Below are positions 7,001-61,251 of a stretch of 64,000 nucleotides of DNA, in pieces. Below the pieces are notes generated by a model, which saw only the letters and a list, made by a program, of their open reading frames with translations, searched no databases and was not told the DNA's origin. The position numbers and the translations under genes are program-made. Source of the stretch: Patescibacteria group bacterium (GTDB lineage: Bacteria; Patescibacteriota; Patescibacteriia; PEXW01); contig JBBTVB010000001.1 of NCBI GenBank assembly GCA_038063455.1, positions 13,719-77,718 on the forward strand, given 5' to 3'. Position 1 is the stretch's first letter; each line of letters starts with the position of its first letter.

Positions 7001-7512
7001 AAATCTTCATCGATATGTACAAAGAGGGGACGGCCTACCGCAGTTTACTTTCCATGTTCGCCATTTCCATTTCCAAAGGGTTGCAGTACGGCATCCCGCT
7101 GGAAGAGTACGTCGACACCTTCACCTACACGCGTTTTGAACCGGCTGGCCCGGTGCAGGGCCACGACAACGTGAAGATGTCCACCTCCATTCTGGACTAC
7201 GTGTTCCGCGTGCTGGGCTTTGAATATTTGGGCCGTACGGATTTGGTCCACGTGAAGCCCGACACGAAGGATGAAAAAGATTTGCATCAACCCGCTGTTG
7301 TCCAGCAAGCCACCTTACCCATGAACCTGCAAACCGCCGAGCAGAAAGAAGCCACCAAGAGCAACATCAGCTTCGGCATGGATGGCAAAGACGAAGCGCG
7401 GCAGCAAGGCTTTACCGGCGACCAGTGTGTGGCCTGCGGGAGCATGAAGATGAAGCGCAATGGCACCTGCAACCTGTGCCTAGATTGCGGGGAAACCACG
7501 GGGTGTAGCTAG
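4006..7512 (+). CDS. nrdJ: adenosylcobalamin-dependent ribonucleotide reductase (class II)
   Basis: 1168-aa ORF with the catalytic-loop motif SNPCSEY, typical class II blocks ([22 protein letters not shown]) and a C-terminal CxxC...CxxC tail. ATG 4063 is an alternative start. Confidence 0.93.
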
Positions 7513-9669: not shown

Positions 9670-9762
9670 GCTCACCTCCGGTATTTTTTGTGTGAGCAGT
9701 ATACGCTCAACGCCCGAACCGGTCAAGGCCTTTGGGTCCGAACCAGAACATTCCCGCTGTAC

Positions 9763-9790
9763 AAAAAAAGAACCACCCGGGGATGGTTCT
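9763..9790 (-). terminator. intrinsic terminator (minus strand) after CDS 9801..10010
   Basis: AGAACCA / TGGTTCT stem, followed by T7 on the minus strand. Confidence 0.7.
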
Positions 9791-9800
9791 TACAAGGTGC

Positions 9801-10010
9801 TTAAGCAAAGTGGATGTGGAGGTCTGCGGCATCCAGCGCGGTTACATCTGGCATGTTCCGCAACACGTACTCTCGTGTTGCAATCCATGCCGGAAGGATG
9901 TTGTAGGAGTCCCTGGAGACTCGAGGTTCTTGCCAGCGGATTTCCACTTTGTCGTGGCGGCGGCCTTCTACGACTGCCCCAAGGAGTGTGAGGGTGTATT
10001 CTACCCGCAT
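9801..10010 (-). CDS. hypothetical small protein (69 aa)
   Basis: ORF ends 11 nt before a good minus-strand terminator; the ribosome-binding site is weak. Confidence 0.5.
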   Translation of the reverse strand: MRVEYTLTLLGAVVEGRRHDKVEIRWQEPRVSRDSYNILPAWIATREYVLRNMPDVTALDAADLHIHFA

Positions 10011-10085
10011 TGCTGTGCGCCTTTCTGGTGGCGCGTCCTATGCGAGGTTTATCCTGCTTCCTATTGTGCAGGGTGTATCATCGAT

Positions 10086-10448
10086 CTATCCATTTTTTGC
10101 TGAACAATGTTTATTTCGGGCCAAATGCAGTGCGCTCTTAATATTTTTATGCTGCGTCCACACCCAGATGGTAATGCATAGTGATGAGACCCATGCTGCT
10201 ACATTTTGGGAGTCAGGATAAGACAATGCTACTTCGGAAGGTACAGCATGCATCATTCCCAGAACACACAGGGCAGCGAACCAAATTAGCATGCCCAAGA
10301 AGATGTTTGTTACAAATCCAGCCACGAGGTAGTACAGGAAGCGCACAATGATTCCATCTTGCGATGCTTTTGTAATTACACCCTCCAGCTTTAGAAGGAT
10401 ATGCACGCAGAAGACAAAGCCAACGATACAGAGTATGAGAATGTCCAT
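10086..10448 (-). CDS. hypothetical membrane protein (about 120 aa, 3-4 TM)
   Basis: GGAGGAAACA-ATG at 10448; hydrophobic segments throughout. Confidence 0.65.
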   Translation of the reverse strand: MDILILCIVGFVFCVHILLKLEGVITKASQDGIIVRFLYYLVAGFVTNIFLGMLIWFAALCVLGMMHAVPSEVALSYPDSQNVAAWVSSLCITIWVWTQHKNIKSALHLARNKHCSAKNG

Positions 10449-13498: not shown

Positions 13499-14413
13499 AT
13501 GGGGCCTATGCGGAACTACCGTCGGTACACCTCAGCTTCGGGGCATATTGTTGGGCGCAGCCGGGGTACCCCCCCAGATCGCAGCCGGTTGGTGGTGGGG
13601 ATTGTTATTGTTGGCCTGATTTTGCTCTTCGTGGCGTACCTGCGCACCGGCAAGAAGGCGACGCCTGCAACTACCAGCAATACGAATGTCAGCACCAACG
13701 TGGCAGTGAGTGTGCCGCGGGCGGCAGGTTTGAGCACCGCTGCCTGTCCGAGCATACTTGACCGCGCGAATACCACCGAGAAAGCGGTCGCCCTTACGCT
13801 GGATATTGGCACTGTCCCTGGCGATCTATCAAAGACTCTCCCTGCGGCAAAAACTGCAGGCGTACCCGTTGCGTTTTTTATAACCGGGAAGCTCGTAGAA
13901 AATGATAAGGCGGCGGTAGAAAGCATCCGGGATGCGGGTTTCCCGATATACAACCATAGCTACGACAACCTCCGGTTTTCCAAACTGACGACCAAGGAAG
14001 TGCAGGCGCAGCTGCAAGCAACCGACGACCTGATTCGCAGCGTGACGAATGTGTCGACCAAGCCGTACGCGCGTCTGCCTTTTGGCGATAGTTCTGCCGA
14101 GGCGATTTCGGCAATGCGGGCTGCGGGCTACTGCGCGCTGACCTGGACCGTGGATGGTTTGGATATAAGTTCAACGGCAACCGTGCAGAGCGTTACCCAA
14201 CGCGTGCAGACCTACATAAAACCCGGCGGGATTATCCTGCTGCATGCCGGTAGCGACTTGGCCTACGCGGCAATTCCGGAAGTTGTGCGCACGCTGCAAG
14301 CGCAAGGCTACCGCTTTGTTGCGCTCGACGACCTGTTCCGCATAGCGGCGCCGATCAGCACCAATACGAATACCGCTACCGCAAACACGAACACGCCAGC
14401 GAGTCAGGAATAA
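13499..14413 (+). CDS. polysaccharide deacetylase (NodB homology domain), membrane-anchored
   Basis: TM anchor followed by ALTLDIG, HSYDN and LLHAGS blocks. ATG 13499 is preferred over TTG 13472. Confidence 0.85.
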   Translation: MGPMRNYRRYTSASGHIVGRSRGTPPDRSRLVVGIVIVGLILLFVAYLRTGKKATPATTSNTNVSTNVAVSVPRAAGLSTAACPSILDRANTTEKAVALTLDIGTVPGDLSKTLPAAKTAGVPVAFFITGKLVENDKAAVESIRDAGFPIYNHSYDNLRFSKLTTKEVQAQLQATDDLIRSVTNVSTKPYARLPFGDSSAEAISAMRAAGYCALTWTVDGLDISSTATVQSVTQRVQTYIKPGGIILLHAGSDLAYAAIPEVVRTLQAQGYRFVALDDLFRIAAPISTNTNTATANTNTPASQE

Positions 14414-16432: not shown

Positions 16433-16626
16433 GTCTTCTCTCCTTTTGTGGCACATGTGCCGTTGTTTTTTTGCTAGCGGGCTATCTCTGTGGTAGCCAT
16501 AGCCAGAAAACACCGAATGCATCTCGGTCACTTTTGGCTATGGCCATTTATTGTAAGTGGATTGTCAATGTGCGCGGAATTACAGCCCACCTTAGCACCG
16601 TGGGATGGTTTGTCAATATTCCCTTT

Positions 16627-16752
16627 GTCATTCCGAGTGCCGCAACGGCGGCGCGACCTGCCCGCCGTACTTCGCTGGCGAAGGCAGGCGGGGGAATCTC
16701 GAATTTTCTCTCCAAATGCGAGATTCCTCCTCTCTCCGGTTGTCGGAATGAC
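16627..16752. repeat. MITE-like element, copy A (GTCATTCCG ... CGGAATGAC termini)
   Basis: 9-bp terminal inverted repeat enclosing nested hairpins (GGAATCTCG/CGAGATTCC). Same termini family as 53411 and 56044. Confidence 0.6.
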
Positions 16753-16766
16753 AGAATAGGAAGGCG

Positions 16767-16805
16767 AGCTTTACAGTCCTACCGCTTTACAGCTATCTTC
16801 CCCTC
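16767..16805 (+). promoter_or_regulatory. conserved 39-nt start-proximal module (AGCTTTAC...CAGCTATCTT-N6-ATG), putative promoter of a leaderless prfB mRNA
   Basis: Same motif at the same 39-nt distance from the ATG as upstream of the arnT-like gene and smpB. Confidence 0.5.
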
Positions 16806-17904
16806 ATGCCCAGTCTCACCGACCAGATCCGCGACCTCCAGGCGAAGCTTGCTTCGACTTGGGGGTTACTTTGACCTAGACCAGCGTCGGCAAAAACTCG
16901 GCGAACTTGACGACCAGATGGCGCAAGTTGATTTTTGGGCTGACCAGGAAAACGCGCGCAACGTAAGCCAGCAAGCTGAAGCCTTGCGCAAAGAAGTGGG
17001 GGAGTGGCAACAGCTGAAGGCCAACCTGGATGACCTAGGTAATTTAGCTGACGAGACTCATGAAGACGCGAAGCTGACCAAAGAAATTACGGAGCAGTTT
17101 GCCCAACTGAAAAAGCAGTTTGACGGTTTGGAGTTTCAGGTGCTGCTCGCCGGCGAGTACGATAGTAAGGACGCAATTTTTTCCGTCCACGCCGGCACGG
17201 GTGGTACCGACGCCCAGGATTGGGCCGAGATGCTGCTACGTATGCTGTTGCGTTTCTGTGAACGCCAAGGCTGGAGCGCGCGCGTCGTTGATGAATCGAA
17301 GGGCCAAGAAGCGGGTATAAAAAGTGCGACCGTTATTGTCCGTGGTCGATGGGCCTATGGCTACTTGAAGAGCGAAGCAGGTGTGCACCGCCTGGTGCGT
17401 ATTTCACCCTACGACGCGGAGAAGATGCGCCATACCTCATTTGCGCTGGTCGAAGTGTTACCCGAGTTTGCGGATGTGGAAGAGCAGGCGATTGACGAGA
17501 AAGATTTGCGCGTGGATACGTATCTCTCATCTGGTCACGGTGGGCAGAGCGTGCAGACGACGTACTCGGCGGTGCGTATTGTGCACATCCCGACGGGCAT
17601 TACCGTGACCTGCCAGAACGAGCGCTCGCAGCGGCAGAACCGCGAGACCGCCATGTCTATCCTGCGCGCCAAGTTGCACCAGCTCAACATTTCCAAGCAG
17701 CAAGAAGAGAAACAGGCTTTGCGCGGGGCCTACAGCGAGGCGGCCTGGGGCAACCAAATTCGCAGCTACGTGCTGCAGCCGTACCAGCTGGTGAAAGACC
17801 ACCGCACCAGCGTGGAAACCACCAACCCGGACGATGTGCTCAATGGCCATTTGGAACCGTTCATGGAAGGCTACCTGCGCTGGCAGAAGGGTAAAGGCAA
17901 ATAA
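16806..17904 (+). CDS. prfB: peptide chain release factor 2 (programmed +1 frameshift at 16869-16875)
   Basis: Frame 0 reads MPSLTDQIRDLQAKLASTWGLL then TGA. The GGGGG-TTA-CTT-TGA-C site shifts into the frame encoding DLDQRRQKLGEL...SPYDAEKMRHTSF...GGQSVQTT. The ORF-track extension back to 16471 is non-coding read-through. Confidence 0.92.
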
Positions 17905-32908: not shown

Positions 32909-33312
32909 TGGTGGAGATGAGGGGTCTTGCACCCCTGTCTAGAATGCGGCGGGCAGGTGGTCTACAGGTGTAGGGCGTTCACGGGTGTTTCGATTGTGCC
33001 GCATGGAGCGCCCAAGCCCGGCAGAATCTAGTGGAAGTAATTTTCGGTTGCGTTGTTACCACCCCCGCGCAACCTACGCCTGGAATATAACACTCGCGAT
33101 TCCCGCGCCAGGTCGCGGGGCGAATGGGCTATCGGTTTTTAAGCGAACGCCGGAGCAAAGCTGGGAACTGTGAACGCGTTAGCGAACGCAGTCTTCACCT
33201 TGCTGACAATGCTATTGGCAGTTGTCGAGTTGTCCAGCAGTTTTACGCCGTGCCGAACGCGGGCGACCCGCACACCAACCGTAATGCAATCTATCAACTT
33301 CTGAACATCCCC
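32909..33312 (-). ncRNA. ssrA: tmRNA (ssrA)
   Basis: 5' GGGGATG pairs with 3' CATCTCC-A-CCA (G3:U70). T-arm-like GGGGTGCAAGACCCC. Internal tag frame 33219..33139 reads ANSIVSKVKTAFANAFTVPSFAPAFA*. Adjacent to smpB. Confidence 0.85.
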
Positions 33313-33405: not shown

Positions 33406-33858
33406 TTAACCCTTTTGCCGCATCGCGCGGGCAACGTCACGCGACACTTCTCGTTTTTTAATCGATGCTCGTTTATCATGTGCTTTTTTCCCACGCGCTA
33501 GGCCAATGCTCACTTTTACCAAGCCGCGGTGGGTAAAGAATTTTAGCGGGATAAGCGTGCAGCCCGCGCTGTGCATTTTTCCAATGAGCGTAGAAATCTC
33601 TGAGCGCTTCATCAGCAAGTGTCGGTCGCGCTCAGGATTGTAACCGACTTGGACAGTAGCTGCGGGTTTGTACGGCGCAATGTAGGCGTGGACAAGCCAC
33701 AGCGATCTTTCCCGCAAACTCACGTATGCGCCCTGCAGGTTCATATTGCCAGTTTTGGCTGACTTTACTTCCGGCCCGGTAAGGACAATGCCAGCATCGT
33801 ACGTTTCTAGTACGTCGTAGTTAAAGGTCGCTTTTTTGTTGCGGGCCAGTTGAGGCAT
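33406..33858 (-). CDS. smpB: SsrA-binding protein SmpB
   Basis: NKKATFNYDVLETYDAGIVLTGPEVKS... Confidence 0.95.
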   Translation of the reverse strand: MPQLARNKKATFNYDVLETYDAGIVLTGPEVKSAKTGNMNLQGAYVSLRERSLWLVHAYIAPYKPAATVQVGYNPERDRHLLMKRSEISTLIGKMHSAGCTLIPLKFFTHRGLVKVSIGLARGKKAHDKRASIKKREVSRDVARAMRQKG

Positions 33859-33897
33859 AGGAGAAGGGTAGCTGGAGAGCTATAGAGCCGTAAAGCT
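33859..33897 (-). promoter_or_regulatory. conserved 39-nt start-proximal module upstream of smpB
   Basis: Minus strand reads AGCTTTACGGCTCTATAGCTCTCCAGCTACCCTTCTCCT-ATG. Confidence 0.5.
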
Positions 33898-33990: not shown

Positions 33991-34410
33991 TTAGACACAT
34001 GCAGGTAGACGTTCCGGCAGGAGCCCACTGGTTAGCGGGTGATGGCGCAACACAGCCTCGAAGTCATCATCGGTCTGGGCACCGAATGCCAGTCCCAGGA
34101 CTTGAAGTGCTTCGGAGCACATGTACATTTCGCTCGTTGGGTTGCCAATTACTTGGCAACGTTGCTTGATTGCCCGGGCTATGGCCCTGCCAATGGCGAC
34201 AGCGTTATTTGAACGTACCGGCATAAAGCTCGGCGGCAAATCGGTTGCCGCAAGCAGCCTTGTAAATGCCATACTCATGCGCCCAGAGTCGCTCACAAGC
34301 GCCTTACGAAGAGCTTCTGGAATTTCATTCATCTTGACCTCAAAACGGATCTCTTCAAGAAGCGCGTGAATGATTGCGGCAAAGAATGGACTAGAGTTCG
34401 AAGCCTTCAA
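33991..34410 (-). CDS. hypothetical protein (139 aa)
   Basis: GAGGAGG lies 7 nt upstream of a TTG start at 34410; helical; no family recognised. Confidence 0.6.
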   Translation of the reverse strand: MKASNSSPFFAAIIHALLEEIRFEVKMNEIPEALRKALVSDSGRMSMAFTRLLAATDLPPSFMPVRSNNAVAIGRAIARAIKQRCQVIGNPTSEMYMCSEALQVLGLAFGAQTDDDFEAVLRHHPLTSGLLPERLPACV

Positions 34411-34515
34411 AGTACTACCTCCTCAAGGTTTGATTTTCGGTCTGTTTTAAGGTGCTTTCTACCGACATCAAATATTACAAGAGTGAGCGTATTTTGTCAA
34501 TGCTATACTTTAGCC

Positions 34516-36138
34516 ATGAACATTCGTACTGAACTGCAGGAGTTGATAGCCAAGGTTGCCGGAATGCCGCAGCCGAAAATTGAACGCACACCGCGCCCGG
34601 AGTTTGGCGACTACGCTACCAACGTCGCCTTAGGCGTGGCGCAAAAGCAAGATGCCTTGCCGCGCGACGTGGCCCAGCAGTTGAGTTTGCGACTAGCGGC
34701 AACGAAGGCAGAGTGTATTCAAAAGGTGGATGTGGCTGGTCCAGGGTTCATCAACATTACCTTGAGCGACAAGTGGTTAGTTGCCCAGGCCAAAGGCCTG
34801 CAAAAGTCTGCGGCATCACTAAGCAAGTCAACAGCGTTCAAGGGCCAACACGCGCACTTAGAATTCATTTCGGCTAACCCCACTGGACCCCTCACGTTGG
34901 CTAATGCCCGCGGCGGCTTTTTGGGCGATATACTGGGGAACGTCCTGCAGCGGGTCGGCTACAAAGTCTATCGCGAGTATTACGTGAATGACCGGGGCAA
35001 CCAGATTAACGTGCTGGCCGAGTCGGTGCTGCGCCGGTACTTCCAGCAACAGGGGATTACCATTGATTACCCAGAGACGTGTTACCAAGGCGTGTACATC
35101 GAAGAGTTGGCCCGCAAGTTAAAGCTGCCGAATTATAAAATGACCGACGTGGCTAAACTCGCCGAGATCCGCGACAAGATTAAAGACAAGGTCGTTGCCA
35201 CGATGCTCAAAGAAATTCAACGCGTGGTTACGAAGGTTATGGGCATCCAGTTTGATAATTGGCTCTCGGAAAAGGCGCTGGTTGCCTCGGGCGTGCTGGA
35301 CAAACTTCTAGCCCAGCTCAAAGCGCACAACATGGTCTACGAGAAAGACGGTGCGACCTGGCTGGCAACCACAAAGTATGGTGACGACAAAGATCGCGTG
35401 CTCGTCAAAGCCGATGGCGAAATGACCTATTTCCTGCCCGACATCGCCAACCACTGGTTGAAATTTACGAAGCATAAGGCAAACATCGGCATTAACATCC
35501 TTGGCCCTGACCACCATGGCTATACCGGCCGTATGCGGGCTGCACTTGCAGGTTTGAATATCGACCCAAAACGCTTCTCCCCACTTATTTTTCAAATTGT
35601 GAGGGCGATTAAAGACGGCCAGGAGCTACGAATGTCAAAACGCCGGGGAACTTACGTAGAAATTGAAGAAATTGTTCAGGACGTTGGCTTGGATGCCGCC
35701 CGGTTTTTCTTTTTGATGTATGACACGACCACACCCCTAGATTTCAATTTGGATCTGGCCAAGGAGCGGAGCGAGAAAAATCCGGTGTACTATATCCAGT
35801 ATGCGCACGCCCGGCTGTGTAGCATTTTGGCCAAGGTGAAGAAACTACCCGCCGCAAAACAGCGGCTTGATGTATTGCACCCCGCCAGCCGAAAGCTTAT
35901 ACTGGAATTCCTTCACTGGCCGGAAGTACTGGAAGATGTCAGTCGCGACTACGGTGCGCAACGGATTCCGCAGTACGCCTTGCACCTGGCCCGTACATTC
36001 CATGAGTTTTACACCCAGGTCCGCGTGATTGATAATGACAAGGTCCAGGCATTGCCACTCGCGCTGGTTCGCGCTACAAAGAATGTACTGGCAGACGTGC
36101 TGGCAACCATGGGAATAAGCGCGCCAACAAAAATGTGA
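34516..36138 (+). CDS. argS: arginine--tRNA ligase
   Basis: Class I aaRS HIGH-type SANPTGPLTLANARGG and MSKRRG (KMSK), plus a DALR anticodon-binding tail. TGcTATACT lies 6 nt before the ATG. Confidence 0.95.
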   Translation: MNIRTELQELIAKVAGMPQPKIERTPRPEFGDYATNVALGVAQKQDALPRDVAQQLSLRLAATKAECIQKVDVAGPGFINITLSDKWLVAQAKGLQKSAASLSKSTAFKGQHAHLEFISANPTGPLTLANARGGFLGDILGNVLQRVGYKVYREYYVNDRGNQINVLAESVLRRYFQQQGITIDYPETCYQGVYIEELARKLKLPNYKMTDVAKLAEIRDKIKDKVVATMLKEIQRVVTKVMGIQFDNWLSEKALVASGVLDKLLAQLKAHNMVYEKDGATWLATTKYGDDKDRVLVKADGEMTYFLPDIANHWLKFTKHKANIGINILGPDHHGYTGRMRAALAGLNIDPKRFSPLIFQIVRAIKDGQELRMSKRRGTYVEIEEIVQDVGLDAARFFFLMYDTTTPLDFNLDLAKERSEKNPVYYIQYAHARLCSILAKVKKLPAAKQRLDVLHPASRKLILEFLHWPEVLEDVSRDYGAQRIPQYALHLARTFHEFYTQVRVIDNDKVQALPLALVRATKNVLADVLATMGISAPTKM

Positions 36139-36233: not shown

Positions 36234-37379
36234 ATGCGCATCGGTATCGACTGCAGAACTATCCTCAATCCACACTCTGGCGAACGTGCCGGCGTGGGCC
36301 ACTACGTGCATGGCTTGGTGAACGCGCTCATCCGGCAGAACCCCAAGGACGAATTCGTCCTATATTTTGATTACCGCACGCCAGATATGGGCATGTTTAG
36401 CCGGCCCAACGTGAAGGTGAAGCACTTTCCCTTCTCGCAGTACGGCAAGTACTTATCGTTTGGGTACTCGCACATGCTCATTACTGCCTACTTGCTGAAA
36501 GAAGGGTTGGATGTGCTGCACATCCCGGCCGGGTCCATTCCGCTGACGTACCCGAAAAAGGTGGTGTACACCATGCACGACGTGGCAATTTTCAAACACC
36601 CCGAGTGGTTCCCGTCATCTTTTGTTTCGCGCAACGTGCTGGTGCCGCAAACCCTGCGCAAAGCCGACGCTATTATTGCCGTGTCGGGCAGTACGGCAAA
36701 AGACCTCAAGCAGTTATTCAACATCAATGCCAAAAAGATTACGACCATTCACCACGGCTTCGACGTGCAGAAAATTCCGCTCAAGCGCCGCGCTACCGAA
36801 ACGTTGGCCAAGTTCAAATTGCCGAAGCAGTACTTCCTGTTCGTCGGCACGCTAGAGCCGCGCAAAAACGTCGAAAACCTAATGCGCGCCTTCAAACAGC
36901 TGCAAGAAAAAACCCCGGCTGCCAAAGATGTGGTGCTAGTGCTAGCTGGCCAGTACGGCTACCACTCCGAACAGATCATGCAGGAGATGCTCGACTTAGG
37001 GCTTAAACGGAGTATCCGCTACCTTGGGTATGTTAGCCACAACGAAAAGTTAGAACTTATCAAGCACGCTACGGCCTTTACCTTCCCCACGCTGTACGAA
37101 GGGTTTGGCTTGCCCGTGCTGGAAGCGCTCGCTTTGGGCGTACCGGTTATCACCAGTAATAACTCTTCGTTGCCAGAAATTACCGGTAAGGCTGCAATCC
37201 TGGTTGACCCGAAGAACGTCAACGACATTGCCCGCGCCATGCGCGACATTTTGACCAAGCCCGCAACCGTGCAGCGCCTGCAAGCAGCCGGGCCCAAGCA
37301 AGCGCTGTCGTTCTCTTGGGACACCTGCGCGCAAGAAACCATGAAGGTGTACCGCAAAGTGGTGGGGAAGAGGGCGTAG
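36234..37379 (+). CDS. glycosyltransferase family 4 (GT-B fold)
   Basis: MRIGIDCR... with a C-terminal EGFGLPVLEALALGVPVITSN motif. Confidence 0.88.
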   Translation: MRIGIDCRTILNPHSGERAGVGHYVHGLVNALIRQNPKDEFVLYFDYRTPDMGMFSRPNVKVKHFPFSQYGKYLSFGYSHMLITAYLLKEGLDVLHIPAGSIPLTYPKKVVYTMHDVAIFKHPEWFPSSFVSRNVLVPQTLRKADAIIAVSGSTAKDLKQLFNINAKKITTIHHGFDVQKIPLKRRATETLAKFKLPKQYFLFVGTLEPRKNVENLMRAFKQLQEKTPAAKDVVLVLAGQYGYHSEQIMQEMLDLGLKRSIRYLGYVSHNEKLELIKHATAFTFPTLYEGFGLPVLEALALGVPVITSNNSSLPEITGKAAILVDPKNVNDIARAMRDILTKPATVQRLQAAGPKQALSFSWDTCAQETMKVYRKVVGKRA

Positions 37380-37399
37380 GGGCGAAGCTTGCTTCGCCC
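37376..37399 (+). repeat. REP element (GTAG + hairpin) left of the RAYT gene
   Basis: GTAGGGGCGAAGCTTGCTTCGCCC; overlaps the GT4 stop codon. Confidence 0.7.
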
Positions 37400-37408
37400 A
37401 GACTATCG

Positions 37409-37885
37409 ATGCACCCCTTAGGCCGTCGTTCAATTCGTTTGCAAGAGTATGACTACCGTTCTGATGGGGCGTATTTTGTTACCATATGTACATTTAATAG
37501 AAAACGGTCAATTACCGAATCGCGCAAACTATTACTCAAACATGAGCTCAAAGCCCTTGAAGTCAGGTTCCAAGGCCTCCACCTAGATTTTTACATATTC
37601 ATGGCTAATCATATTCACGTCATTTTTACATTTCGCAATGTAGCAACGGAATTATCAAAAGTTGTCCAAACATACAAATCTCGAACAACAATCGGTATAC
37701 GCAAGGGCGGGTATACTGCGCCGAAGTTCTGGCAAAGAAATTATTATGAGCGAGTTATCCGAAATCAAGAAGAGTTAAATGTGCTGCGTGAATATATCCG
37801 TCTTAATCCAGAGCAAGAACGTTTTGATTTTCAAGAAATTTTACGTCAGAAGGGTCGAGCAAGCTCGACCCCTACGGCACTATAA
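37409..37885 (+). mobile_element. REP-associated tyrosine transposase (RAYT; IS200/IS605 Y1 transposase-like)
   Basis: YDYRSDGAYFVTICT, the MANHIHVIF HUH motif, and KFWQRNYYERVIR with the catalytic Tyr region. AT-richer by eye. Flanked by GTAG hairpins. Confidence 0.85.
37852..37875 (-). repeat. REP element, inverted orientation, overlapping the RAYT 3' end
   Basis: Minus strand reads GTAGGGGTCGAGCTTGCTCGACCC. Confidence 0.65.
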
Positions 37886-37923: not shown

Positions 37924-38012
37924 ATAATTTAAAATTCATGCTACTCCTTGACAGAGTTGCGTTTCGGTGATAGATTAGCCGGAAACATAAAACAACATTG
38001 CAGGAGGAGTAT

Positions 38013-38363
38013 ATGCCAAATGTCTTGGTGCAGTATAGGGTTACGGAGCATGGCACCCCATCATTGCTTTTGAAGGCCGATCTGGCAAGAATTGTTGCCA
38101 ACAGGCTGAATGTCGGGGAAGCTTCACCGATAAGCTGCGACGATGTTACTGTCGTGTTCCAAAAGTTCGGCTTCAATGACGTACATAAACGTGATGTGGT
38201 AATACAGGTAACTGCGCACGACTTCCCTGATCGTGTCCGGGAGCACAAGGCAATTACAGAAGCGATCGCTGACGACATTGTGCCGACGCTGAAAAATTTT
38301 AGCTTCGGAGTGATCGTCAACTTGACGCCGCTGGAGTGGGCCGCTCGCGAACCCAAAATGTAG
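38013..38363 (+). CDS. hypothetical 116-aa protein, possibly tautomerase superfamily (N-terminal Met-Pro)
   Basis: CAGGAGGAGTAT-ATG at 38013. MPNVLVQY... together with a MIF/CHMI-like length. Functional assignment is weak. Confidence 0.6.
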   Translation: MPNVLVQYRVTEHGTPSLLLKADLARIVANRLNVGEASPISCDDVTVVFQKFGFNDVHKRDVVIQVTAHDFPDRVREHKAITEAIADDIVPTLKNFSFGVIVNLTPLEWAAREPKM

Positions 38364-38414: not shown

Positions 38415-38470
38415 CATTCCTCTTGCCAATGAGGCTGCTTTATCGTAAAGTATATTTTGCACATACGGCT

Positions 38471-41400
38471 ATGAAGAAAAAGGCAGCGCAGCAAGAAAAG
38501 GCCGCGACGCAGGAACCGCAAATGCGCGCCGCCCCCGTGAACCACTCACAGAGTTCGGATTCACGGCAAACCCCCTTCCCCGCACTGGAGGAAGCGGTTT
38601 TGCAATTGTGGGAGCAGGAACAGGTATTTGCCAAAACCTTGGCGCAGACCAAAAACGGTCCGCGCTTTGTCTTTTACGAAGGTCCGCCCACGGCCAACGG
38701 CAAACCCGGCATCCACCACGTACTGGCGCGTGCGTATAAAGATGTGATTGTTCGCTACAAAACCATGCGCGGTTTTTACGTGGAGCGCAAAGCCGGCTGG
38801 GACACGCACGGCCTGCCCGTGGAGTTGCAGGTGGAGAAGGCCCTAAACATTTCGGGCAAGCAGCAAATTGAAGACATTGTCCCCGGTGACAAGCGCGCGA
38901 GCATTGAAAAATTCAACCAAGAGTGCAAAACCAGTGTCATGGCGTACCGGCAGGACTGGGAAGCGCTAACCCGCCGCATGGGCTACTGGCTCGATGTAGA
39001 CCACCCGTACATTACCTACGATGCAGGCTACATCGAGAGTGTGTGGTCGGTGTTGAAACAGGTGTGGGATAAAGGTCTCGTCTACAAAGGCCATAAAGTT
39101 GTCCCGCACTGCCCGCGCTGCGAGACGGCGCTGTCTTCACACGAAGTCGCGCAGGGCTATAAGAGCGTTATCGACACGTCGGTGTACGTAAAGTTTAAAG
39201 TGACGAACAGCAACGTGAAAGCTATTCAGAACCTTACGAGTAAAGGCGAAGACGTTTTCATCCTCTCCTGGACCACAACGCCGTGGACGCTGCCGGGCAA
39301 CGTCGCCTTGGCGATTGGTAAAAAAATTGCCTACCAACTGGTCAAAGCGGATGGCGCGTACTTGGTCGTTGCGAAAGAACGCCTGCACGTCGTGGGCGAA
39401 GATGCCAAAGTGCTGGAAGACTTGAAAGGCGAGCAACTCATTGGGACGACGTACGAGCCACTGTTTGCAGGCGCGGTAGAGCGAGGCAATGCACAAACTG
39501 CCTGGACGGTGTTGGACGCTGCTTTTGTAAACACAACCGATGGTACCGGCGTGGTGCACACCGCAGTGATGTATGGCGAAGACGACTACCAACTCGGAGC
39601 CACGGCGGGTTTGCCGAAGCAGCACACCGTGGATACGACGGGAAAATTTTTACCCTCGGTTCCCAAATGGGCCGGGAAGTTTGTGAAGAGCAAAACCGTT
39701 GAAACCGAAATTATTACCGACCTTAAAGAACGTGGCTTGCTTTTTAAAGTGGAAGCATACACGCACGACTACCCGTTCTGCTGGCGGTGCAGCACGCCGC
39801 TGCTCTACTACGCTAAGGATAGCTGGTTTATTAAGATGTCGGCCGTGCGGGACCAGCTCATAAAAAATAACCAGACCATCAATTGGGTGCCGGCGCACTT
39901 GCGTGACGGCCGCTTCGGCGAATGGCTGAAAGACGTGAAAGACTGGGCCATCTCCCGCGAGCGTTACTGGGGCACGCCGCTGCCGATCTGGGAGTGCGAG
40001 CAGTGCCAGGCGCAGAAAATGGTGGGGAGCTTTGCTGAGCTGAACCTCCAAGAAACTGGCGTTGAAGTTATGATTATGCGGCACGGTTTTTCGAAGAAGA
40101 ATGAGCCGTCTATTATTCAAGGGAACCTTGAAGAAAGCGAGGCATGGGGGTTAACCGCAGCAGGGCAGGCCGAGGTACAAAAAACCGCAGTCAAACTGGT
40201 TGGCAAGGTTGACGTTATTGTGGCATCAGATTTTGGTCGTACGCGCGAGACCGCCGCCATAGTCCAAAAAGCAACTGGCGCCTCGGTCCACTATGATGCT
40301 GACTTGCGGGAAATTTACACTCCGGCTTGGGAAGGCCAGCTGGTTGACGAAGTGCTGCGTACGGTACCCGAACCTATACCGCTCAATTACCGTATGGGTG
40401 CGGGCGAAACGTACTACGCTCTCCGCGAACGCATGCAACGTGCAGTGCAGCGCGCTATTCGCCAGCACCCAGGCAAGCGCATTGTGTTTGTTTCGCACGG
40501 CGACCCGTTGTGGATCCTCAAGTGGTCATACTCGGACGTACCAGAAAACACGTATCACGAAACGGCATACCCGAAGAAAGGCGAAGTGGAGACCCTCCAC
40601 GTTCCCGTGCAATTCGATCCCCACCGGCCATACGTTGATGACCTAACGCTGGTGTGTGAAAAATGCCAAGGCACCATGCGCCGGGTGCCCGAAGTACTGG
40701 ATGTGTGGTTTGACTCGGGGGCTGTGCCCTATGCCCAGTGGCACTATCCATTTGAACAGCTGGCGCGCGTGGATGAAGGCACGAACTTCCCAGCAGATTA
40801 CATTGCTGAAGCTATTGACCAGACCCGCGGGTGGTTTTACACCCTACTCGCCATTTCCACGTTGCTTGGCAAAGGCGCGCCCTACAAGAACGTCATTTCG
40901 CTGGCGCACATTTTGGATGCCAAAGGCCAGAAAATGAGTAAGTCGAAAGGTAATGTGGTAGAGCCAAACGCCGTCATGAATACATATGGAGCTGATGCAT
41001 TACGACTCCATCTTTTTGGTATGAACCAGGCGGGGGATAATAAGCTTTTCGACGTGCGCGACGTGGATGGCGTAGTAAAGAAAACCTTGTTGATTTTTTG
41101 GAATGTGGTGACGTTTTATATAACGTACGTTGTAGAAGCTGCGCAAGATCCTTCGTCCCGCCGCGGCGGGACTCAGGATGACAATGGGAGTAAACCCGAG
41201 CACGTTATGGACCGGTGGATTTTGGCGCGGCTGGCGCAGGTAACCAAGCTGGTAGCCGACAAGTTGGATGCCTACGATCCAACTACAGCCGTGCGCGGGC
41301 TGCAGGAGTTTATAACCGAGCTTTCCACGTGGTATTTGCGCCGTAGCCGCGACCGGTTGCGCACCAAGGGCGGGGAAGAAACTGGCGCTATCCTTGGTCA

Positions 41401-42067
41401 GGTTATTCAACACACCGCTATGCTCTTGGCGCCCTTTACTCCGTTCATTGCGGATACAGTGTATGGTGAATTACGGGCAGAAAGTGATCCAGTGAGCGTC
41501 CATTTAGCAAGCTGGCCAAAAGCCGTGGTTTCGAGCCAGAAACTTTTGGAATCGATGCAGATGTTGCGCGACGCTGTGGAGTTAGGTCACGCCATTCGGA
41601 AAGATGGCAACCTCAAGCTTCGTCAACCGCTTGCTTGCGTCTTTGTGAACTATGAAATGTCGGCGGAACTGCAGAGCGTGTTGAAAGAAGAGCTCAATGT
41701 TGAAAGCTGCAAAGTTGGCAAGGCTGTTCCTGCTGGAACGTCGTGGCTGCAAAAAGGCAAGGGTGCGTTGCTAGTGGCTATGGATACAGCAATGACCGAT
41801 GACCTGAAGCACAAAGGCCTTGTGCGCGAACTTGCCCGCCACATTAACGATTTACGCAAAGTCGCTGGCCTCACCGTGAAAGATTTGGTGGATGTCGAAT
41901 GGATGACCGACGACCAAACCTTGCAGCATGCCTTTACCGAGCACACCGCTGAACTGCGTGACCTTACTCGCACCCGTGGTATAAAAGCGTCGACGGTGAC
42001 AAACGTCACACACAAGAAAGAACTCGTCATGGGTGGGGCACGCGTGACTATTGGGATTAGCGCATAA
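38471..42067 (+). CDS. ileS: isoleucine--tRNA ligase with an inserted histidine-phosphatase (PGAM-like) domain
   Basis: PPTANGKPGIHH (HIGH), KMSKSKG, and CP1 editing blocks. Codons 40061-40612 encode RHG...GRTRETA...SHGD between the CxxC knuckle and FDPHRPYVD. Start is ATG 38471 or 38522. Confidence 0.92.
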   Translation: MKKKAAQQEKAATQEPQMRAAPVNHSQSSDSRQTPFPALEEAVLQLWEQEQVFAKTLAQTKNGPRFVFYEGPPTANGKPGIHHVLARAYKDVIVRYKTMRGFYVERKAGWDTHGLPVELQVEKALNISGKQQIEDIVPGDKRASIEKFNQECKTSVMAYRQDWEALTRRMGYWLDVDHPYITYDAGYIESVWSVLKQVWDKGLVYKGHKVVPHCPRCETALSSHEVAQGYKSVIDTSVYVKFKVTNSNVKAIQNLTSKGEDVFILSWTTTPWTLPGNVALAIGKKIAYQLVKADGAYLVVAKERLHVVGEDAKVLEDLKGEQLIGTTYEPLFAGAVERGNAQTAWTVLDAAFVNTTDGTGVVHTAVMYGEDDYQLGATAGLPKQHTVDTTGKFLPSVPKWAGKFVKSKTVETEIITDLKERGLLFKVEAYTHDYPFCWRCSTPLLYYAKDSWFIKMSAVRDQLIKNNQTINWVPAHLRDGRFGEWLKDVKDWAISRERYWGTPLPIWECEQCQAQKMVGSFAELNLQETGVEVMIMRHGFSKKNEPSIIQGNLEESEAWGLTAAGQAEVQKTAVKLVGKVDVIVASDFGRTRETAAIVQKATGASVHYDADLREIYTPAWEGQLVDEVLRTVPEPIPLNYRMGAGETYYALRERMQRAVQRAIRQHPGKRIVFVSHGDPLWILKWSYSDVPENTYHETAYPKKGEVETLHVPVQFDPHRPYVDDLTLVCEKCQGTMRRVPEVLDVWFDSGAVPYAQWHYPFEQLARVDEGTNFPADYIAEAIDQTRGWFYTLLAISTLLGKGAPYKNVISLAHILDAKGQKMSKSKGNVVEPNAVMNTYGADALRLHLFGMNQAGDNKLFDVRDVDGVVKKTLLIFWNVVTFYITYVVEAAQDPSSRRGGTQDDNGSKPEHVMDRWILARLAQVTKLVADKLDAYDPTTAVRGLQEFITELSTWYLRRSRDRLRTKGGEETGAILGQVIQHTAMLLAPFTPFIADTVYGELRAESDPVSVHLASWPKAVVSSQKLLESMQMLRDAVELGHAIRKDGNLKLRQPLACVFVNYEMSAELQSVLKEELNVESCKVGKAVPAGTSWLQKGKGALLVAMDTAMTDDLKHKGLVRELARHINDLRKVAGLTVKDLVDVEWMTDDQTLQHAFTEHTAELRDLTRTRGIKASTVTNVTHKKELVMGGARVTIGISA

Positions 42068-42089
42068 CTTAGTTAAAAGTATTTTTGTC

Positions 42090-42623
42090 ATGATACATTC
42101 GCCAACACCCGTTGATGAAATACTTGATCTTGTTGATAGCAATGACATTGTAGTAGGACAAAAAACACGCTCGGAAGTCTATGAACAAGAGTTAAGTAAT
42201 TTTCGAGTCATCAACGTGTTTGTAGTCAATGACCGTGGAGAATTATGGATTCCTCGACGTACTGCGCAGAAACGAATTTTTCCACTGCACCTCGATGTCA
42301 GCGTAGGCGGACATGTCGAAAGCGGAGAAAACTATGAAGATGCATTTCATCGCGAAGTGTTAGAAGAAATAAATATTGATACGAGAATTACTCCCTATAA
42401 GCTATTGGGGAAGCTCACACCTACGGACGGTATTTCAGCGTTCATGCAAGTGTATGAGATTAAAAAAAATTCAGCACCCCGGTATAATCAAGAAGACTTT
42501 ATAGAATACTTCTGGTTGAAACCACAGGCTCTTATGCAGAAAATTGCAAAAGGGGAAAAAGTAAAAAGCGATTTACCGAAACTTATCCAGATGTTTTACC
42601 CACCACAGCATGAGCTTGCTTGA
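42090..42623 (+). CDS. NUDIX hydrolase (IDI-like subfamily)
   Basis: Nudix box GGHVESGENYEDAFHREVLEEINI. Markedly AT-rich by eye. Overlaps the recO start by 14 nt. Confidence 0.8.
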   Translation: MIHSPTPVDEILDLVDSNDIVVGQKTRSEVYEQELSNFRVINVFVVNDRGELWIPRRTAQKRIFPLHLDVSVGGHVESGENYEDAFHREVLEEINIDTRITPYKLLGKLTPTDGISAFMQVYEIKKNSAPRYNQEDFIEYFWLKPQALMQKIAKGEKVKSDLPKLIQMFYPPQHELA

Positions 42624-43389
42624 CGTTTCCGGCGTCGTGCTCAACCGCCGTGACGTACGCGAGGACAGTCGCTTGTATAGCGTCTACACCCACGAACGCG
42701 GCAAGGTAGAAGTTTTTGGCCGTGGCATTCGCAAGGGGAGCGCAAAGCTCGGCGGTCACTTGGAACCTGGTGCAACTGTCCGGCTCACACTTGCCCAAGG
42801 CAAGAGCGGGGAGACCATTACGGCGGTCGAGCGCGATCACTATCCTGCTGCCACGATGCAAAGCCTGCCGCGGTTGGCGAGTTTAGGTTTTGTACTCGGC
42901 CTTGTTGATGCGCTTACTAAAGCAGATTCGCCCGACCCAGCGCTAGCCACTTTTTTGCAAGAAGCGGTTGGCATTATCGAAACCTTTGATGAGCCTAGTA
43001 ACCACTTTGCGCGCTTTCGCATGTGGTTTGCTTGGCACGTGCTTGGCCTAACAGGCGTGGGTCCAGAGTTGGACCGGTGCGTGCAGTGTCGGCGGGAGTT
43101 GCCAGAAGCTAAAGTACGCTTTAGCGCATTGCTGGGCGGCTGGCTGGGACCAGAGTGTAGCGATAAAGATGTTGATGCCATTGCCGTCACCGCTGACGTA
43201 CGGGATTGCGTGCGCGTGTTGGTACGCAGCAATTGGACAGAAGCTTTTGCGTACGGTGCGCCAATTAGCGTGGAGCAGACTGTTGCAAAGCTGACGCGCG
43301 CAGCTTTGGACCATGCCCTAGAGCGTCGCCTGCCCGCCGAACGCTTCGTCGCCTTTGTCCGTTCGCTGTCGGTGCCGTATACTGCCTAG
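42610..43389 (+). CDS. recO: DNA repair protein RecO
   Basis: N-terminal OB fold (VVLNRRDVREDSRLYSVYTHERGKVEVFGRG) and a CVQC...C zinc motif. Confidence 0.88.
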   Translation: MSLLDVSGVVLNRRDVREDSRLYSVYTHERGKVEVFGRGIRKGSAKLGGHLEPGATVRLTLAQGKSGETITAVERDHYPAATMQSLPRLASLGFVLGLVDALTKADSPDPALATFLQEAVGIIETFDEPSNHFARFRMWFAWHVLGLTGVGPELDRCVQCRRELPEAKVRFSALLGGWLGPECSDKDVDAIAVTADVRDCVRVLVRSNWTEAFAYGAPISVEQTVAKLTRAALDHALERRLPAERFVAFVRSLSVPYTA

Positions 43390-59463: not shown

Positions 59464-61251
59464 ATGAAAATTGTTGAGATAAAAATTGATGGTTTTCGGG
59501 GTTTTAGTAATTTTTCGGTCACATCCGGTGATACCGGAGGATTTATAGTACTGGCCGGAAACAATGGCACAGGCAAATCGACTATTTTGGAAATTGCAGA
59601 GAGTTTAATTAATGGAAGAGCACATACAAATTTTAATGTTGAAGTACTTTCGGGCATTACAAAGGAAAAGACAGATTGGGAGGTTACTGTGGAGTTTAGC
59701 GATGATGATTTAGAATATCTTGCAAAATACTTGACCAGAACACAGCCCCAAACATTCTCAAATAGTTGGGAGTCTTTATTGCTATCTATGAAAAGTGATT
59801 TAAAAAATGAACATGGCAAACATTTTTCTACTATTTCTCTCAGCGTAAATAAGAATTTTCCGATTGGCAGGTCCGGGTTGACCCTTAACTATAATGGCAA
59901 TCCGAATGTTGTGCCACAGTGGTATTCAACTCTTGGCAGCTCTAATTTTTTTGCTGTTTATCTTAGATCCCACCAACAAATACAAGAAACTAACTTAACG
60001 ATTTTTAACGCTTCGGAAGATCAAAACACTCTTTCTCAAGTCGTAGGAGGCGAGAAAAGTCTTAGCCAACGTACTGCAATAGCCACAATTCAATTAGGAC
60101 AGATTCTCTCGCAACTAACTCTTAGTGAGATTTGGAATAATTATCGGTCAAATGGTGGTTCGTTTACGACAGTAAAAGAAGTCCTCGACCCTATAAATGA
60201 AGTCATTGAACCACTTGAGATGACATTCCAGGACGAGGGCTTACAAACGGGAAATATATTTTTTGTAATCCGAAACAAGAAAAGTGGTAAACAGTACTCA
60301 TTAAACTACGCGAGTTCTGGCGAAAGACACGTAATTGCTTTGGCGGCCACACTAATACAGTGGCAAAGACAAAAATTTAAAAGCATTATCTTAATTGATG
60401 AACCAGAAATTCATTTACACCCTGATTATATCTCGAAACTTGGCGCCTTGTTCTCAAAAGTTTTTGGTCCAGAAAATAGTTATACATGTATGGTAGCCAC
60501 ACATTCACCAGACTTTATTGCAACAAATCCAGACAGGGTCTTTCAAATTTCCGTAGACTCAAAGACAATTGTCCCAGTAGAAAACCTTCCGCAAAGAGTT
60601 GCTCTATTTGAAGCCCTAGGAAAAAAGTTCGATCTCTCATTTCTTATTAAAAGGATTGTTTGGGTTGAAGGTGTAACATCACCGAGTAAAGATCACCTAC
60701 AAGATCATGAGGTTTATCAATACTTGATTGACCCGAATAAAGTCACGACAGTGTTTTTACCAGCTGGTGTAGACCCCTCAAGAGACGGAAGTAAGGAAGG
60801 CGTACGCGCGGCAATGAAAGGTTCGAGCATCTTTTTAGAGTTTATTAAGTCAGTTTCAAGTATTGATAGTGGGCTAAATATTATAGCCTTGGTTGATAAA
60901 GATGATGATAAAGGTGCAATAAAGTCGCTGACAATAAAATATACACCTTTTACAAATTTAGAGAATATATTTTTATTGGATTTTCAAGCAGTAGCTGAAG
61001 CTGCGAGTTTAGAAGGAAAGAAACAATATACGCCCATTGAAATATCAAAAATTCTTGATAATATTACTGGTCAAACTTCAACTCAAACTATGAGCGTAAA
61101 TGGCAAGAAAGTGTTTGATAGTTTATATGGCACACTATTTACAATCCCAGATATTTCGCATAAAGAATTCCAAGAGCGTATCTTAAAAAAGATTTTAGTT
61201 GAAAGACTGCCACAAGAAGTTAAAGATTTGTTTGCTGAACTACGCGCATAA
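59464..61251 (+). CDS. ABC/SMC-like ATPase fused to a Toprim/DUF4435-like domain (OLD / PARIS-merge / AbiL-like defence candidate)
   Basis: Walker A GNNGTGKST, signature-like SSGER, Walker B IILIDEPEIHLHP, and THSPDF. C-terminal VWVEGVTS...ALVDKDDD (Toprim Glu and DxD). Strongly AT-rich by eye. Confidence 0.8.
   Translation: MKIVEIKIDGFRGFSNFSVTSGDTGGFIVLAGNNGTGKSTILEIAESLINGRAHTNFNVEVLSGITKEKTDWEVTVEFSDDDLEYLAKYLTRTQPQTFSNSWESLLLSMKSDLKNEHGKHFSTISLSVNKNFPIGRSGLTLNYNGNPNVVPQWYSTLGSSNFFAVYLRSHQQIQETNLTIFNASEDQNTLSQVVGGEKSLSQRTAIATIQLGQILSQLTLSEIWNNYRSNGGSFTTVKEVLDPINEVIEPLEMTFQDEGLQTGNIFFVIRNKKSGKQYSLNYASSGERHVIALAATLIQWQRQKFKSIILIDEPEIHLHPDYISKLGALFSKVFGPENSYTCMVATHSPDFIATNPDRVFQISVDSKTIVPVENLPQRVALFEALGKKFDLSFLIKRIVWVEGVTSPSKDHLQDHEVYQYLIDPNKVTTVFLPAGVDPSRDGSKEGVRAAMKGSSIFLEFIKSVSSIDSGLNIIALVDKDDDKGAIKSLTIKYTPFTNLENIFLLDFQAVAEAASLEGKKQYTPIEISKILDNITGQTSTQTMSVNGKKVFDSLYGTLFTIPDISHKEFQERILKKILVERLPQEVKDLFAELRA

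Follow-up and report, generated by a model that had tools for sequence, protein, structure and literature searches.

The subject of this analysis is ileS, the isoleucyl-tRNA synthetase (IleRS) gene carried by a stretch of 64,000 nucleotides from a Patescibacteria group bacterium (positions 13,719 to 77,718 of contig JBBTVB010000001.1, assembly GCA_038063455.1). The whole stretch is called the window below, and positions in it are counted from its first letter. The IleRS of the window contains a complete histidine phosphatase domain, inserted in frame in a loop of the synthetase and conserved there by selection. This is one instance of a wider association: across a major bacterial radiation, a phosphatase is genetically tied to IleRS, either as a neighbouring gene or as one to three embedded copies.

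A phosphatase domain within IleRS

The ileS gene is a single uninterrupted open reading frame (ORF). Its product has 1214 amino acids (aa) if translation starts at a TTG codon and 1198 aa if it starts at the ATG at position 38471, the choice of start being uncertain. With TIGR00392, the equivalog model for IleRS, it scores 877.3 bits against a cut-off of 621.4, and this score, the signature motif, the KMSKS sequence and the CP1 editing motifs all place it in the type-2 IleRS (Table 1). The tRNA-synt_1 domain of Pfam is matched with E=9e-119, broken into two stretches by His_Phos_1, downstream of which Anticodon_1 and DUF5915 are found. The closest solved structures are those of IleRS2 (8C8W) and of T. 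thermophilus IleRS (1ILE), both with E values of about 1e-235 in phmmer. The T. thermophilus enzyme and the P. megaterium IleRS2 (8C8U/8C8W) have the CxxC...CxxC knuckle in CP3 and the type-2 C-terminal domains, as does the window protein. The class I signature of the latter is non-canonical, with G-I-H-H instead of HXGH. Swapping the first and third positions of HXGH, which gives G/AXHH, is associated in IleRS2 with mupirocin hyper-resistance (PMC10485003). As far as the motif can tell, the window enzyme falls into this class, and its natural GIHH resembles the GVHH engineered in 8C8W. GxHH is present in 25 of the 68 phosphatase-bearing IleRS representatives and HxGH in 40, and G/AXHH also occurs in IleRS without the phosphatase. 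An AlphaFold2 (AF2) model of the full-length protein (1198 aa, alignment of 53 sequences) has a mean predicted local distance difference test (pLDDT) score of 89.7 and a predicted template modelling (pTM) score of 0.81. Its confidence dips solely at the junction blocks 521-530 and 711-720, and disorder (pLDDT <50) is limited to the N-terminal 32 residues and to a loop at 894-905. The core of IleRS is thus modelled as undisturbed by the insert.

A sequence-only reading of the window had proposed that about 184 extra in-frame residues, with the motifs of a histidine phosphatase, interrupt the catalytic core of the synthetase. Alignment with solved IleRS bears out the extra length. Residues 541 and 728 of the query pair with residues 475 and 483 of 8C8W (phmmer), which gives about 186 residues where 8C8W has 7, and a profile search shows the equal gap in 1ILE, from residue 481 to residue 488. 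The location has to be qualified: the insert does interrupt the sequence of the catalytic domain, but structurally it sits in a peripheral surface loop of the CP3 zinc knuckle, flanked on either side by a CxxC half, outside the active-site core. The CxxC...CxxC of CP3 is a zinc-binding motif of T. thermophilus IleRS, and CP3 joins CP2 to the second half of the Rossmann fold; it is placed on the side opposite CP2 and has not been reported to contact tRNA (PMC7191050). The loop is referred to below as site A. Among the 119 proteins with an insert at site A in which both flanks can be located, both cysteine pairs are kept in 76.

An assembly chimera, an intein or an intron would each mean that the mature IleRS lacks the segment, and such an origin can be set aside with near certainty. 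The GC content is uniform across both junctions (0.52-0.57), and the dN of the insert resembles that of its host (see below). The full insert is present at the same position in six GTDB species representatives (L001-L006), with identities of 59-72% in the junction region and 56-69% in the insert. A phmmer search with aa 507-770 against 1.84 billion representatives of 50% identity clusters gave 88 matches at E<=1e-30; of the best 150 matches, more than 130 aligned over flank, insert and flank in one stretch, at 31-46% identity. The same junctions thus recur in seven independent assemblies, six of them those of the representatives, and in more than 130 clusters, which excludes a chance or chimeric assembly for practical purposes. 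An intein was rejected on its junction residues, which are the wrong ones (they read ...ELNLQET/GVEV... and ...HVPVQ/FDPH..., the insert starting G/V), and the Rfam scan of the window gave no intron match. The sources of the matches, where named, are Patescibacteria, Parcubacteria, Nealsonbacteria, Paceibacterota and Colwellbacteria, and some clusters with the embedded architecture are found repeatedly, on numerous contigs with lengths of up to 1-2 Mb. The IleRS-phosphatase architecture is common, and not rare, in Patescibacteria sequence data.

That the insert is a histidine phosphatase (PGAM-like), as the sequence-only reading had it, was confirmed by profile searches. His_Phos_1 (PF00300) matches the ileS protein with E=1.3e-28 and 100.4 bits, against a gathering threshold of 21.7, over profile positions 2-171 of 194; with the 184 residues encoded by 40061-40612 alone, the match has E=3e-30. 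The RHG, SDFGRTRETA and SHGDPL motifs are all present, the last being typical of the family described here. Across 175 copies of the domain, the arginine and the histidine of RHG are invariant (175/175 each), as is the second histidine (175/175); the second arginine is conserved in 174, and the acid position is occupied by Glu in 162 and Asp in 11 (173/175). Modelled alone with AF2 (alignment of 43 sequences), the insert reaches a pLDDT of 91.3 and a pTM of 0.88. The best match of this model in the PDB (Foldseek) is PhoE (1H2E; template modelling score 0.82, 27% identity), followed by PspA, glucosyl-3-phosphoglycerate phosphatase (GpgP) and CobC; there are 301 PDB matches at E<=0.001, and the top 50 listed all belong to the histidine phosphatase superfamily. 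Profile score, catalytic residue set and the dPGM/PhoE alpha/beta fold agree in placing the domain in this superfamily. As it is predicted with confidence both alone and in the full-length protein, the models indicate a complete, separately folding PhoE/PspA-like lobe.

Selection on the insert was examined by comparing nonsynonymous (dN) and synonymous (dS) substitutions; synonymous sites are saturated for most pairs, which leaves the dN comparisons and a few ratios as usable results. In pairwise comparisons, dN is no higher in the insert than in the IleRS body. Between L001 and L002, it is 0.081 in the insert and 0.176 in the body, and the corresponding dN/dS ratios are 0.036 and 0.117. The insert is under strong purifying selection, at least as strong as that on IleRS itself. 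Profile matches, predicted fold, conservation in the 175 copies and dN all accord with the earlier view that the catalytic residues are intact and that the domain is no decayed relic, and its residues suggest that the phosphatase is catalytically competent.

Within the superfamily, several more precise assignments were tried and rejected. The insert scores 60.3 bits with the CobC equivalog TIGR03162 (cut-off 162.9) and 31.4 bits with NF011580 (250), 53.2 bits with GpmB (261) and 47.9 bits with dPGM_arch (225) among the mutases, and 49.6 bits with the phosphoserine phosphatase model NF045917 (350). Its L-R-E-I..WEG and SHGDPL also differ from the motifs of the mutase type. The best match in NCBIfam is NF005567, a bifunctional RNase H/acid phosphatase, at 63 bits against a cut-off of 326. 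This Rv2228c-type protein is a precedent for a CobC/PhoE-like phosphatase joined to a nucleic-acid enzyme, although by end-to-end fusion and not by internal insertion. PhoE (YhfR) of Geobacillus stearothermophilus (1H2E/1EBB), of about 200 aa, has the same catalytic set (RHG, second Arg, Glu, second His) and is among the best matches by sequence profile as well as the best by fold. It is free-standing and has SHGG, whereas the domain studied here is either embedded or the product of a gene between argS and ileS, with SHGDPL as its motif. PspA of Hydrogenobacter thermophilus (4IJ5/4IJ6) is the top phosphatase in the profile search (E=1e-31) and the second in the fold search, but the domain lacks a serine-biosynthesis context and falls far below the cut-off of NF045917. 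The window insert has an isoelectric point (pI) of 5.8 and a net charge of -5, and the median pI is 6.5 for embedded and 5.6 for free domains.

Other insertion sites, loss and the stand-alone form

In other representative IleRS, the phosphatase has entered further loops. At site B it lies between DCWFESGSMPYA and PADFIAEGLDQTRGWF, before PADFIAEG, and at site C in the loop that follows YANIDGW where the anticodon-binding domain begins, a loop that is disordered in the window model. Site A' denotes a second copy within CP3, after a DLHK..VD motif. The combinations A+A', A+C and B+C were found, and P0208 has copies at A and B and the start of a third one at site C; the IleRS with extra sites or copies are P0196, P0198, P0201, P0208, P0172, P0197, P0205, P0221 and P0163. 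The five catalytic residues are kept in nearly all copies at additional sites, and the insertions at these other loops appear to be independent of that at site A. Other domains can be embedded as well. Besides the phosphatase, Pfam identifies one or two GNAT domains in P0198, P0216 and P0190 and, within the editing region of the last, also a Y1 transposase domain of the IS200 type; inspection of the sequences by eye suggests a GNAT domain in P0241 and a Nudix-like insert in P0210. The curated family NF040702, an IleRS with GNAT, provides a precedent for an IleRS with an extra enzymatic domain, a GNAT there and a phosphatase in the window. Its cut-off of 1999 bits is not reached by P0198, P0216, P0241, P0196 or P0122; the GNAT-bearing representatives, at 241-292 bits, are non-members, and the window protein was likewise rejected at 311.6 bits. 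IleRS in these lineages is an unusually permissive scaffold, with phosphatase, GNAT, Nudix and IS200-type transposase domains among its guests, and such permissiveness is relevant to protein engineering and to the annotation of genomes from the candidate phyla radiation (CPR).

The domain can also be lost. The closest relative of the window IleRS, that of L007 (4519-7560), shares 81% identity over the body and keeps the order argS-glycosyltransferase-ileS-recO, but the phosphatase is missing. At the corresponding site (about 6110-6125), just VKKS stands between GSFAELN and FDPHRP, aligned with LQET of the window. This loop is shorter than in every insert-free IleRS aligned, which points to a clean secondary deletion. 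No free phosphatase gene was found within the 12-kb locus of L007.

The closest stand-alone homologues have about 187-222 aa, and their profile gives 2898 matches at E<=1e-10, those with a name being 'histidine phosphatase family protein' of Patescibacteria or Moranbacteria. Ten genomic contexts of free homologues, spanning 28-100% identity, were examined. Nine of them have the phosphatase gene flanked by argS and ileS, all in the same orientation and with spacers of as little as 1-2 nt; upstream, smpB and infC-rpmI-rplT are encoded on the other strand, and downstream of ileS there is usually recO. The exception is P0269, the most distant homologue, in an unrelated context. The compactness of the cluster varies. 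In L031 and L033, argS, phosphatase and ileS follow each other with gaps of 1-41 nt, and in L010 the phosphatase comes directly after argS. In L025, a 91-aa ORF separates argS and phosphatase. The order is argS, a 51-aa ORF, phosphatase, HIT, ileS and recO in L020-L024, and argS, phosphatase, two hemerythrins, ileS and Nudix in L028; L029, L030 and L032 have one to three additional small genes inside the cluster. At its end, the free phosphatase gene overlaps with the gene of the HIT-family hydrolase (6558-7043 in L020; also in L021-L024), which lies ahead of ileS; HIT enzymes are known to hydrolyse compounds that resemble aminoacyl-adenylates. Two unrelated loci have a gene of the 23S_rRNA_IVP family (PF05635) between free phosphatase and ileS (L029, 6301-6963; L030, 7465-8025).

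The window retains much of this neighbourhood, in the order tmRNA, smpB, argS, a glycosyltransferase gene, an IS200-like gene, a 121-aa ORF, ileS with its phosphatase, a Nudix gene and recO (Table 1). The slot held by the IS200-like gene and the 121-aa ORF is the position of the free phosphatase gene in other Patescibacteria. The overlap of ileS with a Nudix gene also occurs in L028 (Nudix at 9712-10251).

Table 1. Positions of ileS, its motifs, the embedded domain and the neighbouring genes in the window
Feature	Position	Strand	Remarks
tmRNA	32909-33312	-	Rfam, 79.7 bits; beside smpB at upstream edge of neighbourhood
smpB	33409-33879	-	
argS	34213..36135	+	34366-36138 in ORF scan; phmmer against ArgRS of L010, E=2.5e-38
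IS200-like Y1 transposase gene	37316-37885		Upstream of ileS
121-aa ORF	37998-38363		Directly upstream of ileS; no Pfam match
ileS (type-2 IleRS with embedded phosphatase)	38423..42067	+	Single uninterrupted ORF
Class I signature P-G-I-H-H	38705..38719	+	Non-canonical, G/AXHH instead of HXGH; G-I-H-H is aa 96-99
CP1 editing motif WTTTPWT	39269-39289	+	Intact
CP1 editing motif GTGVVH	39542-39559	+	Intact
Left half of CP3 zinc knuckle, CEQC	39995..40006	+	aa 525-528; aligns with CxxC of T. thermophilus IleRS
Embedded histidine phosphatase domain	40061..40612	+	aa 546/547-730; Pfam envelope aa 550-716 (40070-40570)
RHG motif	40079..40087	+	aa 553-555: Arg553, predicted nucleophile His554, Gly555
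SDFGRTRETA motif	40226-40255	+	aa 602-611
Second phosphate-binding arginine, Arg606	40238..40240	+	Predicted; within SDFGRTRETA
General acid, Glu630	40310..40312	+	Predicted; in L-R-E-I
SHGDPL motif	40493-40510	+	aa 691-696; family-typical
Second catalytic histidine, His692	40496..40498	+	Predicted; within SHGDPL
CP3 resumed, right half of zinc knuckle	40613..40666	+	CEKC, aa 745-748
Second half of Rossmann fold	40700..40945	+	DVWFDSG, DQTRGWF and KMSKS, all intact
Surface loop opening the anticodon-binding domain	41138..41203	+	Disordered in AF2 model; site C, holding an extra phosphatase copy in other IleRS
Nudix-family gene	42051..42623	+	PF00293; below IDI and YfcD cut-offs; overlaps ileS stop by 17 nt
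recO	42610..43389	+	Conserved downstream neighbour

The stand-alone phosphatases from between argS and ileS (P0268, P0270, P0302) share with the embedded domain the SHGDPL signature, a C-terminal hairpin and the neighbourhood. They differ from it in being separate genes for some 187-222 aa, whereas in the window the domain is inside ileS and the locus holds no free copy. On sequence grounds, the two forms are one family. A neighbour-joining tree of 214 embedded and free domains is star-like, with distances saturated at about 1.5, and the mean distance from embedded to free domains (1.51) is about that among embedded ones (1.53). None of the 34 sequences examined has more than one phosphatase copy. 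The window and L001-L006 have theirs inside ileS, L010 and L020-L033 as a gene of its own, and in no locus examined do the embedded and the free form coexist. This complementary pattern and the fusion itself argue that phosphatase and IleRS belong together, as Rosetta-stone evidence. A capture of the neighbouring gene by ileS is supported for the Patescibacteria clade that includes the window, and for this clade only. In two multi-domain embedded lineages, P0201 and P0216, argS is missing upstream and the contigs carry biosynthetic genes, which means that the association of IleRS with the phosphatase is not confined to the syntenic Patescibacteria clade.

Proposed function and alternatives

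As to what the phosphatase does, we lean towards an autonomous phosphomonoesterase lobe that works by the phospho-histidine route on a small phosphorylated metabolite or nucleotide, outside the chemistry of aminoacylation, and whose embedding serves co-expression and co-localisation with IleRS. The protein would then be bifunctional, with a functional type-2 IleRS and a PhoE/PspA-type histidine phosphomonoesterase lobe in the knuckle loop of CP3. In the lineage of the window, the phosphatase partner of the argS-ileS cluster would have moved inside ileS, the remaining neighbourhood (tmRNA, smpB, argS...ileS, recO) being retained. During catalysis, His554 would be the nucleophile attacking a phosphomonoester, with Arg553, Arg606 and His692 forming the phosphate pocket and Glu630 acting as the acid. 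The lobe would take no part in adenylate formation, transfer or editing, and its embedding would ensure 1:1 co-expression and co-localisation with IleRS. As substrate we would tentatively expect a nucleotide or small phosphorylated metabolite tied to aminoacylation, and neither tRNA nor protein. Such a small molecule is favoured because every one of the nearest relatives of solved structure acts on small phosphomonoesters, because the domains are near-neutral or acidic, and because the insertion sites are peripheral loops. Several observations weigh against this proposal. The insert reaches no curated equivalog, CobC, GpmB, PspA and dPGM being far below their cut-offs. Gene order in small genomes can persist without functional coupling, and recO belongs to the cluster too. 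Up to three intact copies per IleRS are hard to explain by co-expression alone. Finally, L007 indicates that at least one lineage can do without the function of the phosphatase or obtains it from another source.

A broader alternative is that the phosphatase constitutes a third activity of IleRS, beside synthesis and editing and coupled directly to the charging of tRNA, that either heals the 3' end of tRNA or destroys a phosphorylated inhibitor or by-product; we regard it as possible, if doubtful. For tRNA, the reaction would be the removal of a 3'-phosphate, of a phosphate derived from a 2',3'-cyclic end or of a 3'-pyrophosphate at the CCA end, for instance after attack by toxins of the toxSAS or RNase type. 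Toxins that pyrophosphorylate the CCA end of tRNA and thereby block aminoacylation are known (bioRxiv 10.1101/2021.04.30.441581; PMC11782079), and embedding in IleRS, or a gene position beside argS and ileS, would put the phosphatase where uncharged tRNA binds. The persistent coupling with the genes of two class I synthetases and the repeated fusion to IleRS fit this idea, as does the best match NF005567, in which the fold is paired with a nucleic-acid enzyme. We nevertheless consider tRNA end-healing unlikely. The nearest structural relatives are small-molecule phosphatases, and we know of no member of the histidine phosphatase superfamily that acts on RNA ends. The domain is seen on IleRS only, CP3 is not reported as a tRNA-contacting element (PMC7191050), and, as weaker evidence, the domains are not basic. 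The phosphatase might instead join HIT, Nudix and GNAT modules in housecleaning or self-defence, degrading a phosphorylated by-product or an inhibitor of IleRS that mimics the adenylate. HIT hydrolases do confer resistance to peptide-nucleotide inhibitors of aminoacyl-tRNA synthetases (PMC7157772), and acetylation of aminoacyl-nucleotides by MccE-type enzymes is a second route to resistance (PMC9239234, PMC3817062). The HIT gene between free phosphatase and ileS in L020-L024, the Nudix gene overlapping the ileS stop in the window and L028 and the GNAT domains embedded together with the phosphatase in several IleRS recall these routes, and the window enzyme has the G/AXHH signature of mupirocin hyper-resistance (PMC10485003), which suggests inhibitor pressure on IleRS. 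The chemistry fits poorly: histidine phosphatases cut phosphomonoesters, and neither adenylates nor their mimics are such esters, being mixed anhydrides, diesters or phosphoramidates. Only some loci, moreover, have HIT and Nudix neighbours, and G/AXHH, besides being confined to those 25 of 68 phosphatase-bearing representatives, is shared with IleRS that lack the domain. To our knowledge, no natural phosphorylated inhibitor of IleRS has been described, and we hold this kind of defence to be improbable.

Another explanation supposes no functional relationship with the host. A general metabolic phosphatase, acting for example on sugar phosphates or phosphoserine, would have been caught as a neighbour in permissive loops of IleRS and kept as the sole copy of the cell. 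The families embedded in CPR IleRS (His_Phos, Nudix, Y1_Tnp, GNAT) do recur in part among the neighbouring genes of ileS, the domain enters surface loops, of which one is disordered, recO is in the cluster without obvious functional link, and L007 dropped the domain with its IleRS otherwise unchanged. Adjacency alone, however, would not be expected to yield in-frame insertion at three or four loops, tandem duplication and lineages without argS synteny, and IleRS is the only host seen though argS is equally adjacent, so that mere capture also has little probability. A protein phosphatase that reverses an inhibitory phosphorylation, either of IleRS, for instance by HipA-like kinases on its KMSKS loop, or of some other translation factor, is far less probable still. 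The superfamily includes the protein phosphatases SixA, PGAM5 and Sts-1, kinase toxins target class I synthetases, and the insert has a weak match to SixA (E=3.5e-4, 20 bits against a cut-off of 74.5). Fold and sequence are nonetheless nearest to the small-molecule enzymes PhoE, PspA and CobC and not to SixA, two or three copies per IleRS would be superfluous for self-repair, and no kinase was seen in the neighbourhoods examined. The sequence-only reading had also pointed to alpha-ribazole-5'-phosphate phosphatase (CobC) as a loose link to a B12 theme in the window. TIGR03162 is indeed among the matches and CobC structures appear in the fold search, but the score stays far under the cut-off and the conserved context of the family is argS-ileS and not cob genes. 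The Rfam scan found no cobalamin riboswitch in the 64-kb window, and no cob genes are among its ORFs scanned. The sole B12 element found in it is a class II B12-dependent ribonucleotide reductase (1168 aa, with a C-terminal TSCPD; 4006-7512), a user and not a maker of B12. The link was therefore abandoned, and a CobC-like function can be given almost no credence.

Context and other features of the window

Aminoacyl-tRNA synthetases are among the best-studied enzymes, and their accessory domains have repeatedly revealed editing, signalling and resistance functions. Synthetases with appended or inserted accessory domains are already known, including the NCBI-curated IleRS with GNAT. The searchable literature (subscription-only papers excluded), which includes a 2026 preprint annotating 96,219 IleRS architectures, yielded no account of a histidine phosphatase within or next to IleRS. 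The earlier remark that no described IleRS with such an insertion was known to its author thus holds for publications, but the sequences themselves are common in Patescibacteria databases, where they are labelled merely 'isoleucine--tRNA ligase' or 'class I tRNA ligase family protein'. There seems to be an undescribed phosphatase step tied to tRNA charging in Patescibacteria, which points to a translation-linked removal of phosphate absent from current models of aminoacylation. If the phosphatase acts on tRNA or on an inhibitor directed against IleRS, it would represent a new functional category; as a third activity of IleRS, it would amount to a previously unknown step of quality control or defence across much of Patescibacteria.

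Two further genes of the window, away from ileS, may be mentioned. One encodes a 595-aa AAA_15/AAA_21 (AbiEii-like) ATPase (59464-61251), of a family common in defence systems. The other is a peptide-chain release factor ORF of 477 aa (PCRF and RF-1; 16471-17904), in which PCRF begins at residue 141 and which has either an over-called start codon or an N-terminal extension.

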